A stretch of 32,336 nt of DNA from a virus (taxonomy: Duplodnaviria; Heunggongvirae; Uroviricota; Caudoviricetes; Peduoviridae): positions 1-32,336 of IMG/VR virus record IMGVR_UViG_2974787824_000001. One strand, 5' to 3'. The notes under the pieces are model-generated. The model saw only the letters and a program-made list of their open reading frames with translations. It did no database searches and was not told the DNA's origin. This document shows, one piece after another, positions 3,998-32,141 of this stretch. The first letter of the stretch is position 1. Each line of letters opens with the position of its first letter. Position numbers and translations under genes: made by a program.

Positions 3998-4055
3998 CCG
4001 GCGTCAGTCAGTCCGGGAAAACCTTCACGATTAACCCTTAATTTCAGGAAAAACT

Positions 4056-5132: not shown

Positions 5133-5876
5133 ATGACGAGTCCCGCACAGCGCCACATGATGCGGGTCTCGGCAGCGATGACCGCGCAGCGGGACGCCGC
5201 CCCGCTGCGACATGCAACTGTCTATGAGCAGATGCTGGTTAAGCTGGCCGCAGACCAGCGCACACTGAAAGCGATTTATTCAAAAGAGCTGAAGGCCGCA
5301 AAAAAACGCGAACTGCTGCCGTTCTGGTTGCCGTGGGTGAACGGCGTGCTGGAGCAGGGCAAAGGTGCACAGGATGACATTCTGATGACGGTCATGCTGT
5401 GGCGTCTGGATACCGGCGATATTGCCGGTGCGCTGGAGATTGCCCGTTATGCCCTGAAGTACGGTCTGACCATGCCGGGTAAATACCGCCGCACCCCGCC
5501 GTACATGTTCACCGAGGAAGTGGCGCTTGCGGCCATGCGCGCTCACGCTGCCGGTGAGTCTGTGGATCCCCGCCTGCTGATGGACACCCTCGAACTGACC
5601 GCCACGGCTGACATGCCTGATGAAGTGCGCGCAAAGCTGCACAAAATCACCGGTCTGTTTCTGCGTGACGCTGGTGATGCCGCAGGGGCGCTGGCACACC
5701 TGCAACGTGCGACACAGCTCGACTGTCAGGCAGGCGTCAAAAAAGAGATTGAACGACTGGAGCGGGAGCTGAAACCGAAGCCGGAGCCGCAGCCCAAAGC
5801 GGCCACCCGCGCCCCGCGTAAGACCCGGAGCGTGACACCGGCAAAACGTGGACGCCCGAAAAAGAAAGCCAGTTAA
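5133..5876 (+). CDS. M: Terminase small (endonuclease) subunit (P2 gpM-like)
   Basis: 247-aa ORF with basic Lys/Arg/Pro-rich C-terminus; position and sequence as in P2 M. Confidence 0.9.
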   Translation: MTSPAQRHMMRVSAAMTAQRDAAPLRHATVYEQMLVKLAADQRTLKAIYSKELKAAKKRELLPFWLPWVNGVLEQGKGAQDDILMTVMLWRLDTGDIAGALEIARYALKYGLTMPGKYRRTPPYMFTEEVALAAMRAHAAGESVDPRLLMDTLELTATADMPDEVRAKLHKITGLFLRDAGDAAGALAHLQRATQLDCQAGVKKEIERLERELKPKPEPQPKAATRAPRKTRSVTPAKRGRPKKKAS

Positions 5877-9414: not shown

Positions 9415-10200
9415 TTATGAGTGGTTTTTATTTGATGATTTGTATTCTACAACTTTTTTATTGGCGTAAAGGAATTTTGTATATGACAGAAGTATAACCA
9501 GACCTGAAGTGAAATAGACGAGGGATATTATTAATAATGTTTTTCTGTGGCTGTTATTATCTTTAATCTCCTGACTTAACCATTCGGAGTCCTCCTCGTT
9601 TAGCTGTAAGAGCTTATTGCAGGCGATTGCAGGAAGTGTGTCTGTTACAAAAGTGTTCTGCAGTCTCTTGCAATCGGCAATGCTAAAAGCTTTATAGAAC
9701 TTATCTGTTTTATTGTCGGAGAACAAAAGAACCTTGTCATTATAAACATGGTACATCATATTTTTATATGGTATGGCTATAGCATCCTCTACTATGGCAG
9801 ATTGCTCGTTGTGTATGCAACATGCGAAGGTAATATAAAGAATTCCGGCCAGGACTGCACTCATTGTTTTTGTGATGCATGGCGGTTCTGTTATGTCTCC
9901 CCAGAAGCGAGTAAGGAAAAAATCCGATGTTTTTAGTTTTCCATCAATCAACCCCTGCTGTATCATTTTCACATCTTTGATGCCTGATACATTGATTCCG
10001 TTAATTATTTTAAATAGTTGAATGTCGCGCCACTCGCGGTCCAGTCTTTTTAATTTTTTATCTGAATATCCAAATTTGAAATAATGTGCAATAAGCCTCA
10101 TAAGGTTACTTTTACCAAAGCTAAAAAATGCTAATACTACAAAGACCAAAAGATACAAGACGATTAGCTCCCACACATTAGTCACATTATAGCTGACCAT
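9415..10200 (-). CDS. Hypothetical membrane protein; AT-rich moron at the S/V (P2 orf30) position
   Basis: 261-aa leftward ORF between S and V. Hydrophobic stretches near the N-terminus (LIVLYLLVFVVLAFFSF), middle (MSAVLAGILYITFACCI) and C-terminus (TLLIISLVYFTSGLVILLSY). Visibly AT-rich with A/T-ending codons, unlike neighbours. No motif recognised. Confidence 0.7.
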   Translation of the reverse strand: MVSYNVTNVWELIVLYLLVFVVLAFFSFGKSNLMRLIAHYFKFGYSDKKLKRLDREWRDIQLFKIINGINVSGIKDVKMIQQGLIDGKLKTSDFFLTRFWGDITEPPCITKTMSAVLAGILYITFACCIHNEQSAIVEDAIAIPYKNMMYHVYNDKVLLFSDNKTDKFYKAFSIADCKRLQNTFVTDTLPAIACNKLLQLNEEDSEWLSQEIKDNNSHRKTLLIISLVYFTSGLVILLSYTKFLYANKKVVEYKSSNKNHS

Positions 10201-12709: not shown

Positions 12710-15004
12710 ATGAGCACAAAATTCAGAACCGTTATCACCACTGCCGGTGCAGCAAAGCTGGCAGCGGCAACCGCACCGGGAGGGCGGAAGGTCAACATTA
12801 CCACGATGGCCGTCGGGGATGGCGGTGGTAAATTGCCTGTCCCGGATGCCGGACAGACCGGGCTTATCCACGAAGTCTGGCGACATGCGCTGAACAAAAT
12901 CAGCCAGGACAAACGAAACAGTAATTATATTATCGCAGAGCTGGTTATTCCGCCGGAGGTGGGCGGTTTCTGGATGCGTGAGCTTGGCCTGTACGATGAT
13001 GCGGGAACGTTAATTGCTGTGGCGAACATGGCCGAAAGTTATAAGCCAGCTCTTGCCGAAGGCTCAGGGCGTTCGCAGACCTGCCGCATGGTCATTATCG
13101 TCAGCAGTGTGGCCTCAGTGGAGCTGACCATTGACACCACAACGGTGATGGCGACGCAGGATTACGTTGATGACAAAATTGCAGAACATGAACAGTCACG
13201 ACGTCACCCGGACGCCTCGCTGACCGCAAAAGGTTTTACTCAGTTAAGCAGTGCGACCAACAGCACGTCTGAAACACTGGCTGCAACGCCAAAGGCGGTA
13301 AAGGCCGCATATGACCTTGCTAACGGGAAATATACCGCACAGGACGCCACCACAGCACGAAAAGGCCTTGTCCAGCTCAGTAGTGCCACCAACAGCACGT
13401 CTGAAACGCTCGCCGCAACACCAAAAGCGGTAAAAGCAGCATATGACCTTGCTAACGGGAAATATACCGCACAGGACGCCACCACAGCGCGAAAAGGCCT
13501 TGTTCAGCTCAGTAGCGCCACCAACAGCGATTCTGAAACGCTGGCCGCAACGCCAAAGGCGGTAAAGGTCGCGTATGACCTTGCTAACGGGAAATACACT
13601 GCACAGGATGCCACCACCGCGCGAAAAGGTCTTGTCCAGCTCAGTAGCGCCACCAACAGTGATTCTGAAACACTGGCCGCAACACCAAAAGCGGTGAAGT
13701 CTGCCTATGACAATGCTGAAAAACGTCTTCAGAAAGATCAGAACGGTGCGGATATTCCGGGAAAGGATACCTTCACGAAAAATATCGGTGCCTGTCGTGC
13801 TTATAGCGGCGCTTTGAGCACTGAAGCCGGAAACTGGACAACCGCTCAGTTTATTGAATGGCTGGATTCCCGTGGTGCATTTAATCATCCGTACTGGATG
13901 TGCAAAGGCTCCTGGTCATATGCAAATAACAAAATCATTACGGATACCGGATGTGGTGATATCCACCTGGCTGGTTGTGTCGTCGAGGTCATGGGAACAA
14001 AATCTGCAATCACTATTCGAGTGACCACGCCGACAACATCAAGCGGTGGCGGTACAACCAGCGCGCAATTCACTTACATTAATCATGGGGACGGCTACTC
14101 CCCCGGCTGGCGTCGTGACTGGAATCGTCAGGGCGACGCAATGACCGGAACGATTAATCAGGATGGCGGAAGCCAGAATGCCTATATGTCTACGGCCTTA
14201 TGTTCAGGCACCAGAGGCGGCAAAAAATATCTCAGAAAGTTTCGTGGTGGAGAAGGAGACACTATCTGGCATGAAACAGTGCAGGGCGGGGTAATTCGCT
14301 GGGCGACAGGAAACTATGACGCTCAGGAAGAATTATCACTCAGCTCCGCTTATGGTCTCCGTTCTAGAGGTGAAATTACATCACTCAGTGCTAATGGTCT
14401 GCGCATTGCTTATGGCAATTATGGATTCTTTATCAGGAATGATGGTGGCAGCACATATTTAATGCTGACGGCCTCTGGTGATAAATTTGGGACATGGAAC
14501 GGTTTAAGGCCGCTGACTATCAATAACGCTAATGGCGGAGTGTCAATGGGGCATGGCCTGAGTGTTACTGGTGATATTGCCTCAAGTACCAAAGTACGTG
14601 CCGGTAGCGGGAAAAAATTCACGGTCAGCAGCAGTAATACATCCACGAAGGAAGCCGCATTCAATTTGTGGGGAAACTCAAGTCGTCCGGTGGTGGCTGA
14701 ATTAGGTGATGATGCAGGCTGGCATTTTTACAGTCAGAGAAATACAGATAACAGCATCACTTTTGCTGTTAACGGTCAGGTATCACCATCTAACTATAGT
14801 AATTTTGATTCCCGTTATGTACGCGATATCCGGCTTGGGACTCGAGTTGTCCAGACCATGCAGAAAGGGGTGATGTATGAGAAAGCAGGGCACGTAATTA
14901 CCGGGCTTGGTATTGTCGGTGAAGTCGATGGTGATGATCCCGCAGTATTCAGACCAATACAAAAATACATCAATGGCACATGGTATAACGTCGCACAGGT
15001 GTAA
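12710..15004 (+). CDS. H: Tail fibre protein (P2 gpH-like) with expanded internal repeats and a divergent C-terminal receptor-binding region
   Basis: 764-aa ORF; conserved P2-like N-terminus (MSTKFRTVITTAGAAKLAAA...), internal 44-aa repeats, AT-richer C-terminal half. Longer than the roughly 669 aa I recall for P2 H. Confidence 0.88.
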   Translation: MSTKFRTVITTAGAAKLAAATAPGGRKVNITTMAVGDGGGKLPVPDAGQTGLIHEVWRHALNKISQDKRNSNYIIAELVIPPEVGGFWMRELGLYDDAGTLIAVANMAESYKPALAEGSGRSQTCRMVIIVSSVASVELTIDTTTVMATQDYVDDKIAEHEQSRRHPDASLTAKGFTQLSSATNSTSETLAATPKAVKAAYDLANGKYTAQDATTARKGLVQLSSATNSTSETLAATPKAVKAAYDLANGKYTAQDATTARKGLVQLSSATNSDSETLAATPKAVKVAYDLANGKYTAQDATTARKGLVQLSSATNSDSETLAATPKAVKSAYDNAEKRLQKDQNGADIPGKDTFTKNIGACRAYSGALSTEAGNWTTAQFIEWLDSRGAFNHPYWMCKGSWSYANNKIITDTGCGDIHLAGCVVEVMGTKSAITIRVTTPTTSSGGGTTSAQFTYINHGDGYSPGWRRDWNRQGDAMTGTINQDGGSQNAYMSTALCSGTRGGKKYLRKFRGGEGDTIWHETVQGGVIRWATGNYDAQEELSLSSAYGLRSRGEITSLSANGLRIAYGNYGFFIRNDGGSTYLMLTASGDKFGTWNGLRPLTINNANGGVSMGHGLSVTGDIASSTKVRAGSGKKFTVSSSNTSTKEAAFNLWGNSSRPVVAELGDDAGWHFYSQRNTDNSITFAVNGQVSPSNYSNFDSRYVRDIRLGTRVVQTMQKGVMYEKAGHVITGLGIVGEVDGDDPAVFRPIQKYINGTWYNVAQV
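13229..13711 (+). repeat. About 3.7 tandem copies of a 132-bp (44-aa) in-frame repeat inside H
   Basis: Repeat unit KG(F/L)(T/V)QLSSATNS(T/D)SETLAATPKAVK(A/V/S)AYDLANGKYTAQDATTAR, with copies starting at 13229, 13361, 13493 and 13625 (last one partial). Confidence 0.9.
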
Positions 15005-15007
15005 TTT

Positions 15008-15532
15008 ATGCAGCATTTAAAAAATATTACTGCGGGTAATCCAAAAACTGTTGCCCAATATCAACTGACAAAAAATTTTGATGTTATCTGGTTATGGTCC
15101 GAAGAGGGAAAAAACTGGTATGAGGAAGTAAGTAATTTTCAGGAAGACACGATAAAGATTGTTTACGACGAGAATAATATAATTGTCGGCATCACCAGAG
15201 ATGCTTCAACGCTTAACCCTGAAGGTTTTAGCGTTGTCGAGGTTCCTGATATTACCGCCAACCGACGTGCGGATGACTCAGGTAAATGGATGTTTAAGGA
15301 TGGTGCCGTGATTAAGCGGATTTATACGACAGACGAACAGCAGCAACTGGCAGAATCACAAAAGGCAACTTTACTTTCCGAAGCTGAATCCGTGATTTTG
15401 CCGCTGGAGCGCGCTGTCAGGCTGAATATGGCAACAGATGAGGAGCGCAGCCGACTGGAAGCATGGGAACGCTACAGCGTTCTGGTCAGTCGGGTGGATC
15501 CTGCAAATCCCGAATGGCCGGAAATGCCGTAA
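15008..15532 (+). CDS. G: Tail fibre assembly chaperone (P2 gpG-like)
   Basis: 174-aa ORF immediately after H; resembles the tail fibre assembly protein family of P2 and relatives, with the usual variable region. Confidence 0.8.
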
Positions 15533-15933
15533 TAAGTTGTATGATCTCTGGTGTGAGCTTACATATCTATAGCACAGAGTAAAGCCTAATCTGACAGTCC
15601 GCTATGTGCCAAGAGCGGACGTTGGTATGCAAGAGCCCTCCAAAAGTTGATGGTTGGTTTGCAGGGGGGCTTAAAGAAACTACACTTATCAAGTTGAAGT
15701 TCTGTATTCAGCGAAATCGTAGCACTCTGACGATAAGTAACTCCGGTACCCCGCTCTTCGATGAAGAACCAGAGTAATCCCCCCGAAAAACCAGCGCATC
15801 AAAATTGGATCTTCAGCGGTAGCTTATCGGCTATCGGAAGTACAGGTGTGAATTCGTGGTGAATTGCTTTGATAATAAACGATTAATACGGAAAAACGCA
15901 TTAATCATTTATTAGCTTTTAGTAAACCACAAT

Positions 15934-17283
15934 TTATTCCGTTTTATATATCATAGTAGTCGATTGGAGAATATAGTTTCTGGGAATGTATTCTTCAAAG
16001 TGTTCGTCCTTTTTAAATACATGAACTACATTTGGGAATAATTGATAGTCAACAGGGTGTATAGCGTTTGGATTATGGTACATGTATATGGCTGTACACC
16101 ATGGTTCTTGATAGTTAGGGTCACTTACATCGGCTGAAAATGGATGTGGGTCTGCATCCTGATCAGTTTTAACACCACTGACGTACACTTTGAATCCACT
16201 CGCCTCTACACCTGCAAGAATTCCCATCCGGTTAAACTTAGGTATGGTTGCTTGAGTAGTGAGTAAAACGGCAGAAACATAATTATTTTGTTCTGAGCCA
16301 AAAAAGTTCGACTTGATACTTCTATTTTCATCTGTATGTCTTTCAATAGAAATGCCTGACTCAATATCAATCCCGTACAAATAGCTATGCAAGGCTTCGC
16401 TTGAGAAGGCCATGGACATTCTTTTTGAATAATCCTGCATTGCTATGACAAATGGTTTGTTCTTTGTATGGTTGAGTTCCCAGTAATGAACTTTCTCTGG
16501 CTCAGGGCAATGCCGGACTTTTTTTAATAAACTTCTTGCAAACTTAAAAGGCATGACATTTAGAACATGTTTTCTTAATTCATCCATCTGCTCATCGTTA
16601 ATGACTTTTCTTTCAAGAGGGGCTTCTGCTTCAGCAATGCTTACAGCCTCTACAGCAATTTCCACTCCAAATTTAGATAGCAGAAAATCTGGTTGATTGT
16701 ATTCTCTATTCATTTCAAAGTCGAGTTCATAAAATACAGCGTTCAAATATAATTCAAATAGCCTTGAATTAAATGCATCACTTTGAAAATCCCTTATAAA
16801 TATTCCATCAGGATCTTTGAACCAGTATGCAAGTTCCTCAAGAACAATATATGCAGGGAAATGAAGAGGGTCTTCGAGGAGCATTTTTATATAAACATTC
16901 CTTTTTTTCTCTGGGACTTTACTCAAGAATAATGAAAAAGGTTTGGTTGATTCATCGCCTTGCATGAATGTACCGTTTTGGTGCTGCGCCAGCATCTTTG
17001 GTATGTCATCGTTTAAATTATTAAGCAAGACATCCATTGAGTCAAATGAAGCCAAGACGTTTATTGCTCTGAATTTTTTATCTAAATCCCGACCCAATAC
17101 TATTGCGTTAAAATCTTTATCAATATTGCATATGATTATTGTGGATAACAATGTTATCCCATTCCCCTCATATTTAAACCAGCGTATCTCCTCAGAAAAT
17201 GTCTTAAGGTAAGGTGAGCGACCGTAAAAATAAATATCAAATTGTTCTTTGCTGATCTCACTGAAGTGTAATCCTGCGTTCAT
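15934..17283 (-). CDS. Hypothetical protein; AT-rich cargo gene at the G/FI (Z/fun) position - candidate anti-phage defence protein
   Basis: 449-aa leftward ORF interrupting rightward late genes, flanked by about 400 bp and 470 bp of non-coding DNA; AT-rich. No Walker A, HUH, reverse-transcriptase or obvious nuclease motif seen by eye. Confidence 0.75.
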   Translation of the reverse strand: MNAGLHFSEISKEQFDIYFYGRSPYLKTFSEEIRWFKYEGNGITLLSTIIICNIDKDFNAIVLGRDLDKKFRAINVLASFDSMDVLLNNLNDDIPKMLAQHQNGTFMQGDESTKPFSLFLSKVPEKKRNVYIKMLLEDPLHFPAYIVLEELAYWFKDPDGIFIRDFQSDAFNSRLFELYLNAVFYELDFEMNREYNQPDFLLSKFGVEIAVEAVSIAEAEAPLERKVINDEQMDELRKHVLNVMPFKFARSLLKKVRHCPEPEKVHYWELNHTKNKPFVIAMQDYSKRMSMAFSSEALHSYLYGIDIESGISIERHTDENRSIKSNFFGSEQNNYVSAVLLTTQATIPKFNRMGILAGVEASGFKVYVSGVKTDQDADPHPFSADVSDPNYQEPWCTAIYMYHNPNAIHPVDYQLFPNVVHVFKKDEHFEEYIPRNYILQSTTMIYKTE

Positions 17284-17405
17284 ACCAATTCCTTTTCAAT
17301 GAATAATTGGCCTTTAGGAGTGATTCCCTTTGTCTTTAATTCAGTTCTAACTAGTTCTTTAATCCAATAGCCTAAGCTCATCATGCAGTTGGATCATAAG
17401 ACAAC

Positions 17406-17434
17406 GCCCTATAGTGCTCGTGATACTATAGGGC
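17406..17434. promoter_or_regulatory. Palindromic hairpin upstream of the 449-aa cargo gene (candidate operator or insulator)
   Basis: Perfect 10-bp inverted repeat GCCCTATAGT (17406-17415) / ACTATAGGGC (17425-17434) with a 9-nt loop, about 120 bp upstream of the cargo start on the minus strand; no flanking T-run. Confidence 0.35.
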
Positions 17435-17665
17435 ATCTGACCACACTGTTAACTGGAGTAACGACTATGGCAGGAATATAGCATAACCAAACTCACTCCA
17501 AACTTACATAGCGCTTTCTGGCCGTGAGCATAACAAGGCCCACTCCTCGCTCAAAGCAGACTGTCAGATTTGATAGCGTTTTGGCTATGTAAATTGTCAG
17601 TCGGGAAATAAGTGAGTGCAAATCAGGACAGGCGAGCGAATTGCCCGCCTTTTCTTTACCGGTGG

Positions 17666-17695
17666 TTGTGCTGTCGATTAGCCAACCGGGACAAA
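17666..17695 (+). promoter_or_regulatory. Candidate late-promoter activator element upstream of FI
   Basis: TTGTGCTGTCGATTAGCCAACCGGGACAAA, about 63 nt upstream of the FI start; shares TTGTG-N5-GAT-N-AGCCA-N-CCGGGAC with the element upstream of O. Confidence 0.45.
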
Positions 17696-17757
17696 TAGTC
17701 TGACATCTCGGGTACAACTGAAAATACCACTCACCCATTAACCACGGAGTTAAACGG

Positions 17758-18948
17758 ATGAGTGACTATCATCATGGCGTGCAGGTGCTGGAGATTAACG
17801 ACGGCACCCGCGTCATTTCCACCGTATCCACGGCTATTGTCGGCATGGTCTGCACGGCCAGCGATGCGGATGCGGAAACTTTCCCCCTCAATAAACCTGT
17901 GCTGATTACCAATGTGCAGAGCGCAATTTCAAAGGCCGGTAAAAAAGGCACGCTGGCGGCATCGTTACAGGCCATCGCTGACCAGTCAAAACCGGTCACC
18001 GTTGTCGTGCGTGTGGAAGACGGCACCGGCGAAGACGAGGAAACGAAACTTGCGCAGACCGTTTCCAATATCATCGGCACCACCGACGAAAACGGTCAGT
18101 ACACCGGACTGAAAGCCCTGCTGGCGGCGGAGTCGGTAACCGGTGTTAAACCGCGTATTCTCGGTGTGCCGGGACTGGATACCAAAGAGGTGGCTGTTGC
18201 ACTGGCATCCGTCTGTCAGAAGCTGCGCGCTTTCGGATATATCAGCGCATGGGGCTGTAAGACCATTTCCGAGGTGAAAGCCTACCGCCAGAATTTCAGC
18301 CAGCGTGAGCTGATGGTCATCTGGCCGGATTTCCTCGCATGGGATACGGTCACCAGTACCACCGCCACCGCGTATGCCACCGCCCGTGCGCTGGGTCTGC
18401 GCGCTAAAATCGACCAGGAGCAGGGCTGGCATAAAACGCTGTCCAACGTCGGGGTAAACGGTGTTACCGGCATCAGCGCATCTGTATTCTGGGATTTGCA
18501 GGAGTCCGGCACCGATGCTGACCTGCTTAACGAGTCAGGCGTCACTACGCTGATTCGCCGCGACGGTTTCCGATTCTGGGGTAACCGTACCTGCTCTGAT
18601 GACCCGCTGTTCCTCTTTGAAAACTACACCCGCACCGCGCAGGTGATGGCCGACACGATGGCTGAGGCGCACATGTGGGCGGTGGACAAGCCCATCACCG
18701 CAACGCTGATTCGCGACATCGTTGACGGCATCAATGCCAAATTCCGTGAGCTGAAAACAAACGGCTATATCGTGGATGCGACCTGCTGGTTCAGCGAAGA
18801 ATCCAACGATGCGGAAACCCTCAAGGCCGGAAAACTGTATATCGACTACGACTATACACCGGTGCCTCCTCTTGAAAACCTGACCCTGCGCCAGCGTATT
18901 ACCGATAAATACCTGGCAAATCTGGTCACCTTGGTTAACAGCAATTAA
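17758..18948 (+). CDS. FI: Contractile tail sheath protein (P2 gpFI-like)
   Basis: 396-aa ORF; sequence recognised as P2 FI. Confidence 0.93.
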   Translation: MSDYHHGVQVLEINDGTRVISTVSTAIVGMVCTASDADAETFPLNKPVLITNVQSAISKAGKKGTLAASLQAIADQSKPVTVVVRVEDGTGEDEETKLAQTVSNIIGTTDENGQYTGLKALLAAESVTGVKPRILGVPGLDTKEVAVALASVCQKLRAFGYISAWGCKTISEVKAYRQNFSQRELMVIWPDFLAWDTVTSTTATAYATARALGLRAKIDQEQGWHKTLSNVGVNGVTGISASVFWDLQESGTDADLLNESGVTTLIRRDGFRFWGNRTCSDDPLFLFENYTRTAQVMADTMAEAHMWAVDKPITATLIRDIVDGINAKFRELKTNGYIVDATCWFSEESNDAETLKAGKLYIDYDYTPVPPLENLTLRQRITDKYLANLVTLVNSN

Positions 18949-31199: not shown

Positions 31200-32141
31200 T
31201 TAAGTTAATTTTAATGAATGGTACTCTATCGAGCTGATTGTAGATGCGATATATTTACGATCATTTACAGAGAGTATTGCCGCTAGTAGACGACATACCA
31301 GAGCCTGCATTTGTAGCAATATATCGCTACCATATTGACAATCATTGATACTAGAGAAACCAAGCGGTTGCCCATTAAAAATGGCTTCATGAAAATTATC
31401 ATTGCGTATAACTGAAACATTACATTCATCTGTTGCCCATGACGGGATTTTTACACCGTAATTTTCGCACATCCAATATACTCTATTTTGATGAGATGGT
31501 TTTTTCTCTTTAATGACTTTATCCCTTTCATCCCATGCTATAGCAAAACAGCAATCAAGAGCCATATAAAGATACTGGAATTTCTCAAAGGAAAGGTATA
31601 GTGGGTTATGTGATAGGAATAGGGAGTGTATCACCGCAGCTATTCTTTTAATGGAGCGATCATCTTTTTGTTTGTCTTTTATATAGTTAAGTGCTAGCTC
31701 TATTACTTCTTTTTCAGAGCATCCAACGAGAATAAAGTCAGTTAACTTAGTGGGCTTGATAGTGGTTGCATCAAGAAAACCAGCGTCAGTGGTTGTCAAT
31801 CTTATACCCTTGAAAAAAGAGAGGCACCACACAACAAAGTTGAGAGTTTCTAACGAGGATGTGTTTTTTAATTTTAGTGTGTGCGTTTTGGGCATGCCGA
31901 ATACTCGGTAACTATAAGGCATTGTGCATGTGTCACCATTAAGGTTATATACCTTTCGATTCCCAGGGTATATCCAACCATTAACAACGTTTTTATCATT
32001 GTTAATACGTTCCACTTTCTCAATAAGACCGGGTAAAGTACGCAAAGAAAATTGTTCAGTCTCAATGTTAACTTCTACTGGATAGTATCCAAACTCCGAA
32101 ATAATCTCATTTGGTTGCTGTTCATCAACTTCACCTTGCAT
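31200..32141 (-). CDS. Hypothetical protein; AT-rich cargo gene at the tin/old position - candidate anti-phage defence protein
   Basis: 313-aa leftward ORF next to the right genome end, where P2 carries tin and old. AT-rich with A/T-biased codons. No Walker A motif, so not an Old-type ATPase; no motif recognised by eye. Confidence 0.75.
   Translation of the reverse strand: MQGEVDEQQPNEIISEFGYYPVEVNIETEQFSLRTLPGLIEKVERINNDKNVVNGWIYPGNRKVYNLNGDTCTMPYSYRVFGMPKTHTLKLKNTSSLETLNFVVWCLSFFKGIRLTTTDAGFLDATTIKPTKLTDFILVGCSEKEVIELALNYIKDKQKDDRSIKRIAAVIHSLFLSHNPLYLSFEKFQYLYMALDCCFAIAWDERDKVIKEKKPSHQNRVYWMCENYGVKIPSWATDECNVSVIRNDNFHEAIFNGQPLGFSSINDCQYGSDILLQMQALVCRLLAAILSVNDRKYIASTISSIEYHSLKLT

Follow-up and report, generated by a model that had tools for sequence, protein, structure and literature searches.

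The window, a 32,336-nucleotide stretch of viral DNA (IMG/VR record IMGVR_UViG_2974787824_000001), carries between its tail genes G and FI an AT-rich insert with one leftward gene, whose 449-amino-acid (aa) product we assign to the anti-phage defence family PD-T7-1. The list of open reading frames (ORFs) places a 174-aa ORF at 15008–15532 (+), the 449-aa ORF at 15934–17283 (−) and a 396-aa ORF at 17758–18948 (+). The gap between the outer two is exactly 15533–17757, and the flanks of the 449-aa gene measure 401 bp and 474 bp. Both neighbours are homologues of G and FI by their Pfam matches (Caudo_TAP and Phage_sheath_1), and the window DNA aligns with P2 at G and at FI, the two genes that enclose fun(Z) there. 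ORF list, Pfam and P2 alignment agree with a first-pass annotation, made from the letters alone, which had described a single leftward gene between G and FI with flanks of about 400 and 470 bp, more AT-rich than the core. Indeed, the GC content of the gene is 0.364 and its GC at third codon positions (GC3) 0.336, against a GC of 0.526 for the remaining window and a GC3 of 0.670 for FI; the lowest GC among the other 1350-bp stretches of the window is 0.395. The same annotation had named this position as the Z/fun cargo slot of P2 and a hotspot for anti-phage systems, which is borne out by the alignment and by the literature, where the P2 slot between G and FI is a documented defence hotspot (PMC9519451).

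The 449-aa protein is a PD-T7-1 family member, with a match along its full length to the PADLOC profile PD-T7-1 (PDLC04073; E = 1.5e-156, 519.6 bits; residues 8–447 of 449 against profile positions 2–448 of 452) and a second match, at residues 117–428, to PD-T7-5 (PDLC04110; E = 3.5e-40). The gene at 15934–17283 (−) thus encodes an N-terminal domain of ~105 aa followed by a PD-T7-5-like core. PHROG 8571, whose function is not annotated, matches residues 111–449. The protein is identical to YP_010107791.1/QKE55602.1 of Yersinia phage vB_YpM_46 and to UPI11471.1 of Yersinia phage VB-YPM-4, both P2-like members of Peduovirus; the VB-YPM-4 record is 100% identical throughout 15533–17757 and lists the gene as a 'hypothetical protein'. 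Of 5426 complete E. coli genomes, 201 have copies with ~99% DNA identity, and the window protein shares one 90% cluster of 528 members with the 99%-identical E. coli copy.

PD-T7-1 was discovered in E. coli, in a functional selection (Vassallo et al. 2022, Nat Microbiol; PMC9519451). The reference is a single gene of E. coli ECOR46 (RCQ85672.1, a 450-codon ORF), cloned with its native promoter in a fragment that extends 45 bp beyond the ORF at one end and 302 bp at the other, of which the 302 bp most probably lie upstream; it was labelled 'Nuclease' (PMC9519451). By itself, E. coli PD-T7-1 gives stronger protection from T-even phages (T2/T4/T6) than from T7 (PMC9519451), and in a 2025 study in its native host it blocked a Teseptimavirus and shrank T7 plaques (PMC12409345). 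Later surveys count it as a single-gene PD-(D/E)xK system and as one of the defence systems that phages carry. A text search of the literature for RCQ85672.1 or the phage name gave no paper that ties them to PD-T7-1. The gene in the window resembles PD-T7-1 in its full-length profile match, its 449 aa, its single-gene organization, its own upstream promoter region and its carriage by a prophage. It differs in location: a P2-like phage that was isolated on Yersinia pestis carries it at G/FI (Z/fun), whereas the E. coli copies lie in Qin/Rac-like lambdoid prophages.

The system consists of one gene, with no neighbour conserved across P2-like, lambdoid, Morganella, Serratia, Enterobacter and Burkholderia contexts. 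The sole recurrent neighbour is a 64-aa ribbon-helix-helix (RHH) gene, which is truncated both in the window and in the E. coli cassette. No cognate methyltransferase lies beside the 449-aa gene, the other ORFs of the interval being pseudogene remnants and the neighbours tail genes, and the gene does not form a restriction–modification system with a cognate methylase. We conclude that the gene is almost certainly PD-T7-1, with an anti-phage defence role. The first-pass annotation had regarded the protein as unrecognised and the insert as the window's best candidate for an undescribed single-gene defence function. The single-gene defence stands; both the protein and its function are already on record, PD-T7-1 having been validated in 2022 and again in 2025. 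The family matched is a defence system, not a characterised family of other function. What had been flagged as a possible new defence gene is in fact a catalogued and experimentally validated system, and hence should not be prioritised as a discovery.

Conserved residues and a structural model both point to a nuclease core in the protein. Two protein alignments were used, one of 41 sequences at 34–94% identity and one of 52 sequences down to 27% in which core-only relatives were included. D159, E177, P198, D199, E212, K255, W268, R352, E393, W395 and N404 are invariant in both. An AlphaFold2 (AF2) model built on the 41-sequence alignment (predicted local distance difference test 87.2, predicted template modelling (TM) score 0.86) has the order of secondary structure elements of the PD-(D/E)xK superfamily. 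Helix 1 (residues 171–186) carries the conserved E177 and is followed by strand 1 (190–192), which has no conserved residue; P198–D199 stands immediately ahead of strand 2 (200–204), and strand 3 (207–216) contains E212–A213–V214. K255 lies in helix 2 (230–257), and strand 4 (278–284) contains D284, which is invariant only in the 41-sequence alignment. A weak PHROG match to Holliday-junction resolvases (residues 196–239, E = 0.22) falls in the same region. The HHpred matches of the discoverers, likewise weak, are all anchored at residues 171–220, Hjc reaching 80% probability at residues 177–219 with PDDEXK_5, BsuBI/PstI, FokI_C, Vsr and RmuC lower (PMC9519451). We favour the reading of PD-T7-1 as a non-canonical PD-(D/E)xK nuclease. 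A nuclease core is probable on all the evidence combined, and we lean slightly towards its being catalytically active; that its substrate is DNA is less likely than that. Compared with established PD-(D/E)xK nucleases (Hjc, CdiA-CT, XisH and the cores of type II restriction enzymes), the window protein has Val, Ala or Thr in place of the canonical Lys and an invariant Lys, K255, in the next helix. It also differs from them in having no Pfam or PDB sequence match and in its large extra N- and C-terminal regions, whose fold class is not assigned. The first-pass annotation had seen no clear PD-(D/E)xK motif; the canonical Lys is absent, as this implies, but the invariant P198–D199 and E212 had been overlooked.

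Several points weigh against reading the gene as a PD-T7-1 nuclease. Some relatives with only 35% identity outscore the window protein on the PADLOC PD-T7-1 profile, so the score alone is no proof of identity with the reference. We infer near-identity to RCQ85672.1 indirectly, from ORFs of the same length, from E. coli copies that are 99% identical in DNA and from the shared 90% cluster. Defence in this phage or in Yersinia is a prediction. The PD-T7-1 literature that we found reports no mechanism, nuclease activity, substrate or mode of action, direct or abortive. Within the protein itself, P198–D199 and E212–A–V are present with the canonical Lys position occupied by Val214 (V, A or T in relatives); the invariant K255 is a candidate for a relocated Lys, its clustering in space with E177, D199 and E212 being predicted. 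Among 41 relatives, Pfam returned scattered weak matches, none consistent across members or directed at nucleases, and neither the single protein nor a profile matched any PDB sequence. Foldseek against the PDB and viral models gave nothing below E = 0.03. Among the profile and structure searches that the first-pass annotation had suggested, PADLOC returned PD-T7-1, while Pfam, like NCBIfam, had no match for the 449-aa protein and Foldseek no significant one. Foldseek matches to Rad50 and to a polyprotein were rejected (TM ~0.1).

The family is large and modular. A profile search of 1.84 billion representatives recovered 2747 clusters at E ≤ 1e-3 and 644 at E ≤ 1e-30, in three layouts: the N-terminal domain of ~105 aa joined to the core, as in the window protein; the core only, in PD-T7-5-like relatives of ~345–385 aa; and a permuted form with the domain at the C terminus. 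In one permuted relative (P0168), window residues 139–445 match residues 31–347 (31% identity, E = 4e-54) and window residues 10–103 match residues 365–456 (29% identity, E = 5e-8). P0190 and others likewise carry the ~100-aa domain at the C terminus, and a 671-aa relative (P0147) has ~230 extra C-terminal residues. Since it can be N-terminal, absent or C-terminal among relatives, the small domain is an independent module, plausibly for recognition. Fold matches include small alpha+beta rolls (cystatin/BLIP-like), probably of this domain. PD-T7-5 has a homologous core (the match at residues 117–428), and both systems are labelled 'Nuclease' with weak PD-(D/E)xK similarity. PD-T7-5-type proteins lack the ~105-aa N-terminal domain, however, and of the two profiles that of PD-T7-1 fits the window protein far better.

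The flanks of the gene had been taken for non-coding DNA. Their lengths were correctly given, but they hold P2 backbone, inverted repeats, remnants of two genes and promoters. P2-type backbone downstream of G occupies 15533–15623 (+) and runs into the left inverted repeat (blastn against P2 and P2-EC46; junction alignment). Convergent with the defence gene is an alpA pseudogene remnant at 15792–15866 (+), found by tblastn, which comprises the C-terminal 25 codons with an in-frame stop and has 76% identity to residues 29–53 of Serratia AlpA (E = 1e-10). PGAP annotates this stretch in the E. coli copies as 'AlpA family/HTH regulator, missing N-terminus', and satellite-like islands have an intact alpA at the corresponding position. 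On the other side of the gene, a 34-aa ORF at 17280–17384 (−) is the C-terminal remnant of the 64-aa RHH (HicB/Arc-like) gene (ORF list and tblastn); its stop overlaps the PD-T7-1 start in an ATGA arrangement, and it is 74–75% identical to residues 38–64 of the satellite RHH protein. The intact 64-aa protein, which precedes the defence gene in satellite-like islands, matches Pfam HicB (E = 1.8e-5) and Arc (E = 0.005). Relative to two satellite-bearing contigs (L014 and L016), a deletion of ~167 bp has removed the 5′ part of the RHH gene together with a 14-bp palindrome. In the satellites this palindrome (GGTGTGTACCTATT...AATAGGTACACAC) lies at the start of the RHH gene.

A putative promoter of the defence gene was located by promoter scan at 17406–17452 (−), with a −35 element TTAACA at 17452–17447 and a −10 element TATAGT at 17430–17425 at a spacing of 16, and it has 10 of 12 matches to the sigma-70-like consensus. 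Promoter function is inferred from these elements. An AAGGA ribosome-binding site is kept ahead of the gene. Overlapping the putative promoter at 17406–17434 is a perfect 10-bp palindrome, GCCCTATAGT-N9-ACTATAGGGC, an inverted repeat with 100% complementarity whose DNA fold stands out from shuffled sequences (z = −4.32). Its outer bases, GCCCTA-N17-TAGGGC, are invariant in the satellite homologues, in an alignment whose wrongly oriented L002 row was disregarded. This palindrome is plausibly an operator, and both palindromes are possible operators of the RHH protein. Downstream of the right repeat, 17571–17757 (+) corresponds to the P2 pF late-promoter region of the FI operon, with the activator-binding site at ~17661–17689 and the start of F-operon transcription at ~17732–17734, both mapped from the P2 annotation; ungapped identity to P2 over 17532–17900 is 93.5%. 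An 81-aa ORF at 17493–17738 (−) was rejected as a gene because it overlaps the right repeat and the conserved pF promoter. Rfam gave a single sub-threshold match to a Streptococcus small RNA over 15533–17757, which was likewise rejected.

The ends of the insert are sharply defined. Homology to P2 and P2-EC46 continuing from G stops at 15623 and P2 homology resumes at 17532 (blastn, junction alignment), and homology to lambdoid prophages covers exactly 15597–17562, a cassette of 1.97 kb. This same 15597–17562 segment recurs at ~99% in Qin/Rac-like lambdoid prophages of E. coli, where it lies between a DUF977 gene and hokD, at ~99% in phage mEp460_ev081, and at 95.8% in Morganella phage IME1369_01, flanked by a tail-fibre gene and umuDC. 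The junction of P2 G with the cassette occurs in 0 of the 5426 complete E. coli genomes, in which P2-type matches always end at 15623. More distant homologues, at 83–87%, sit in elements of the order int – alpA – [gene] – RHH – ... – primase that are inserted among phage head genes. In Serratia, a copy with 72% identity belongs to a P4-type integrase island beside a PIN-TPR-GreABC/HetE-N pair, and a Burkholderia copy has no conserved neighbour. On L014 and L016, which are Enterobacter and metagenome contigs, the satellite-like element with the 83–87% homologue splits a major-capsid-type gene inside a phage head-gene cluster; that on L016 carries capsid and decoration genes of its own. The element on these contigs resembles a capsid-forming satellite that has integrated into a prophage. 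From the stumps of alpA and RHH, the phage-borne cassette therefore seems to derive from a satellite-like int–alpA island.

Inverted repeats of 43 nt bound the cassette. The left arm, at 15588–15630, and the right arm, at 17528–17570, are 79% complementary and are annotated as 'left/right inverted repeat' in AJ512680 and related AJ5126xx records of the P2 Z region. The left arm contains the core GTCCGCTATGTGCCAAGAGCGGAC at 15597–15620, an exact match to the pattern, and the right arm, from the inverted repeat search and alignment, a degenerate core GCCCACTCCTCGCTCAAAGCAGAC at 17538–17561. P2 and lambdoid homology overlap only in the 24-nt element at each end, with different cargo beginning just inside. 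A 24-nt imperfect palindrome, GTCCGCTnTG-N6-GAGCGGAC, is found in inverted orientation, around cassettes that differ in their defence-type cargo, in P2-like, lambdoid, Morganella and Klebsiella phages; the core pair is also present at 4002–4035 and 5482–5515 of sequence L020, and at junctions in sequences L007 and L002. In Klebsiella phage ST13-OXA48phi12.3 the pair flanks 1.5 kb of cassette DNA encoding a NucC-like PD_DExK protein (E = 3.6e-33), and in P2-EC46 the cargo between the repeats consists of Lit-like and endonuclease-effector-like ORFs. The left arm can form a DNA hairpin of −7.8 kcal/mol (z = −2.68), and the stem positions of the 24-nt core pair in 88% of cells against 40–52% in slid controls. 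The right copy folds no better than shuffled sequences (z = 0.02), and no compensatory changes are seen in the core stem. The element was consequently rejected as a proven hairpin and is described here as a conserved imperfect palindrome.

P2 fun(Z) and the other Z-region cargos (AJ5126xx) are alike in occupying this slot, between these inverted repeats, as leftward and AT-rich DNA. The window protein nevertheless has no similarity to Fun(Z) (best BLASTP E = 2.2) and is not a member of the Fun(Z) family, the cargo is unlike the Lit-like and endonuclease-effector-like ORFs of P2-EC46, and P2 fun(Z) has no PADLOC match. Site-specific recombination at the Z locus is said to have been proposed already by Nilsson et al. 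in 2004, in the title of their paper. The repeats might accordingly be the ends of a dedicated cassette-exchange system that shuttles single-gene defence cargo among P2-like, lambdoid, Morganella and Klebsiella phages and satellites, although we give this rather little credence. PD-T7-1, NucC-like PD_DExK, Lit-like, endonuclease-effector-like and fun(Z) cargos lie between these repeats. In this picture, PD-T7-1 would be a nuclease whose catalytic Lys has moved, with a sensor domain of ~100 aa that can change its place. Alternatively, the repeats may simply be short patches of homology for general or Red/RecET-type recombination.

The family membership of the protein, the G/FI position of its gene, its foreign base composition, the boundaries of the cassette and its occurrence in other phage backbones are established here. 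Likewise, the slot between G and FI, the Z-region inverted repeats and the unrelated cargo in other P2-like phages identify the insert as horizontally acquired cargo at P2 Z/fun. Together, these observations make it likely that PD-T7-1 came by horizontal transfer to the Z/fun hotspot of a P2-like phage, on a 'moron' cassette with a promoter of its own. The cassette would have kept an alpA stump and lost most of the upstream RHH regulator gene, and would have become seated between the P2 Z-region inverted repeats, where cargo is exchanged. In a lysogen, the gene would be transcribed leftward from its own sigma-70-type promoter, independently of the flanking Ogr-activated late operons. The predicted active site would be formed by E177 of helix 1, D199 at the start of strand 2 and E212 of strand 3, with K255 from the next helix replacing the canonical Lys. 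The movable ~105-aa domain and the conserved C-terminal half would provide recognition of a target or trigger, and this recognition would confine cleavage to infected cells or to the nucleic acid of the invading phage. Discrimination is tentatively placed in these two regions because no methylase marks self DNA.

The nature of the activity allows other readings. PD-T7-1 could be an abortive-infection RNase or tRNase that senses infection, cleaves host or phage RNA and stops cell growth. We consider this unlikely, since 7 of 11 putative DNase systems gave direct immunity in the discovery paper (PMC9519451), the other fold matches are DNA enzymes, and the gene is intact in 201 E. coli genomes despite the truncation of the RHH gene. 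Because these genomes carry the cassette intact with its RHH gene truncated, PD-T7-1 is not toxic in the absence of RHH. The stronger protection against T2/T4/T6 than against T7 (PMC9519451), and the single-chain, nuclease-like protein without a methylase, would also suit a modification-dependent, type IV-like restriction enzyme directed at hypermodified T-even DNA. This is distinctly improbable: PD-T7-1 was selected on T7, shrinks T7 plaques and blocks a Teseptimavirus, and T7 DNA is unmodified (PMC9519451, PMC12409345; the Teseptimavirus is assumed to be alike). Moreover, its discoverers state that none of their five orphan DNase-like proteins resembles type IV systems (PMC9519451), and Pfam finds no match to Mrr, McrBC, GmrSD, SRA or similar domains.

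A more radical departure from the nuclease reading is that the core is catalytically dead, the canonical Lys having been lost, and that protection comes from binding or blocking, much as with a superinfection-exclusion factor. Replacement of this Lys by Val, Ala or Thr, the weakness of the profile and fold matches, and the description of the slot's classical occupant, fun(Z), as an exclusion-type gene of lysogenic conversion all speak for it. Yet more than 50 sequences, with identities as low as 27%, all retain the acidic triad E177/D199/E212 and K255, an invariance that is hard to explain without catalysis, and relocated Lys residues occur in bona fide PD-(D/E)xK enzymes. With the lack of similarity to Fun(Z) (best E = 2.2) and no transmembrane or secretion features noted, we regard a dead core as very improbable. 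Finally, PD-T7-1 might be a silent passenger in vB_YpM_46, its expression crippled by deletion of the RHH gene and palindrome, in line with the ~167 bp missing upstream relative to satellite versions and with isolation of the phage on Y. pestis, where the phenotype is a prediction. This is scarcely credible: the ORF is unbroken, the upstream region with this deletion accompanies equally unbroken ORFs at ~99% in 201 E. coli genomes and 2 other phages, and the 10/12 sigma-70-like promoter and the AAGGA ribosome-binding site are kept. The E. coli gene, moreover, is active with 302 bp on one side, most likely upstream, which would span the promoter if the reference has the same upstream sequence (PMC9519451). 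A self-promoted PD-T7-1 cassette with a probable nuclease core is thus the reading that we retain.

Two other AT-rich patches of the window contain leftward ORFs. A 261-aa ORF at 9415–10200 (−), in a patch of GC ~0.37, occupies the position of P2 orf30; it has no Pfam and no PADLOC match and deserves the term 'unrecognised' more than the PD-T7-1 gene does. A 313-aa ORF at 31200–32141 (−), in a patch of GC ~0.36, follows a 782-aa ORF resembling a replication gene and lies at the position of the P2 tin/old defence hotspot. It too lacks a Pfam or PADLOC match, and is a better candidate than PD-T7-1 for an undescribed defence gene. In the tail-fibre gene H, at 12710–15004 (+), the translation contains 3–4 near-identical tandem copies of a ~44-aa motif (…TAQDATTARKGLVQLSSATNS(T/D)SETLAATPKAVK…).

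For PD-T7-1, the E177/D199/E212/K255 set and the modular 105-aa domain offer concrete targets for mutation. The system is now located in the second P2 hotspot, an arrangement present in none of the 5426 complete E. coli genomes. The anatomy of its cassette, with an alpA stump, a truncated RHH gene and ends bounded by repeats, documents how PD-T7-1, starting from satellite-like islands, reached at least three phage backbones that are unrelated to each other.

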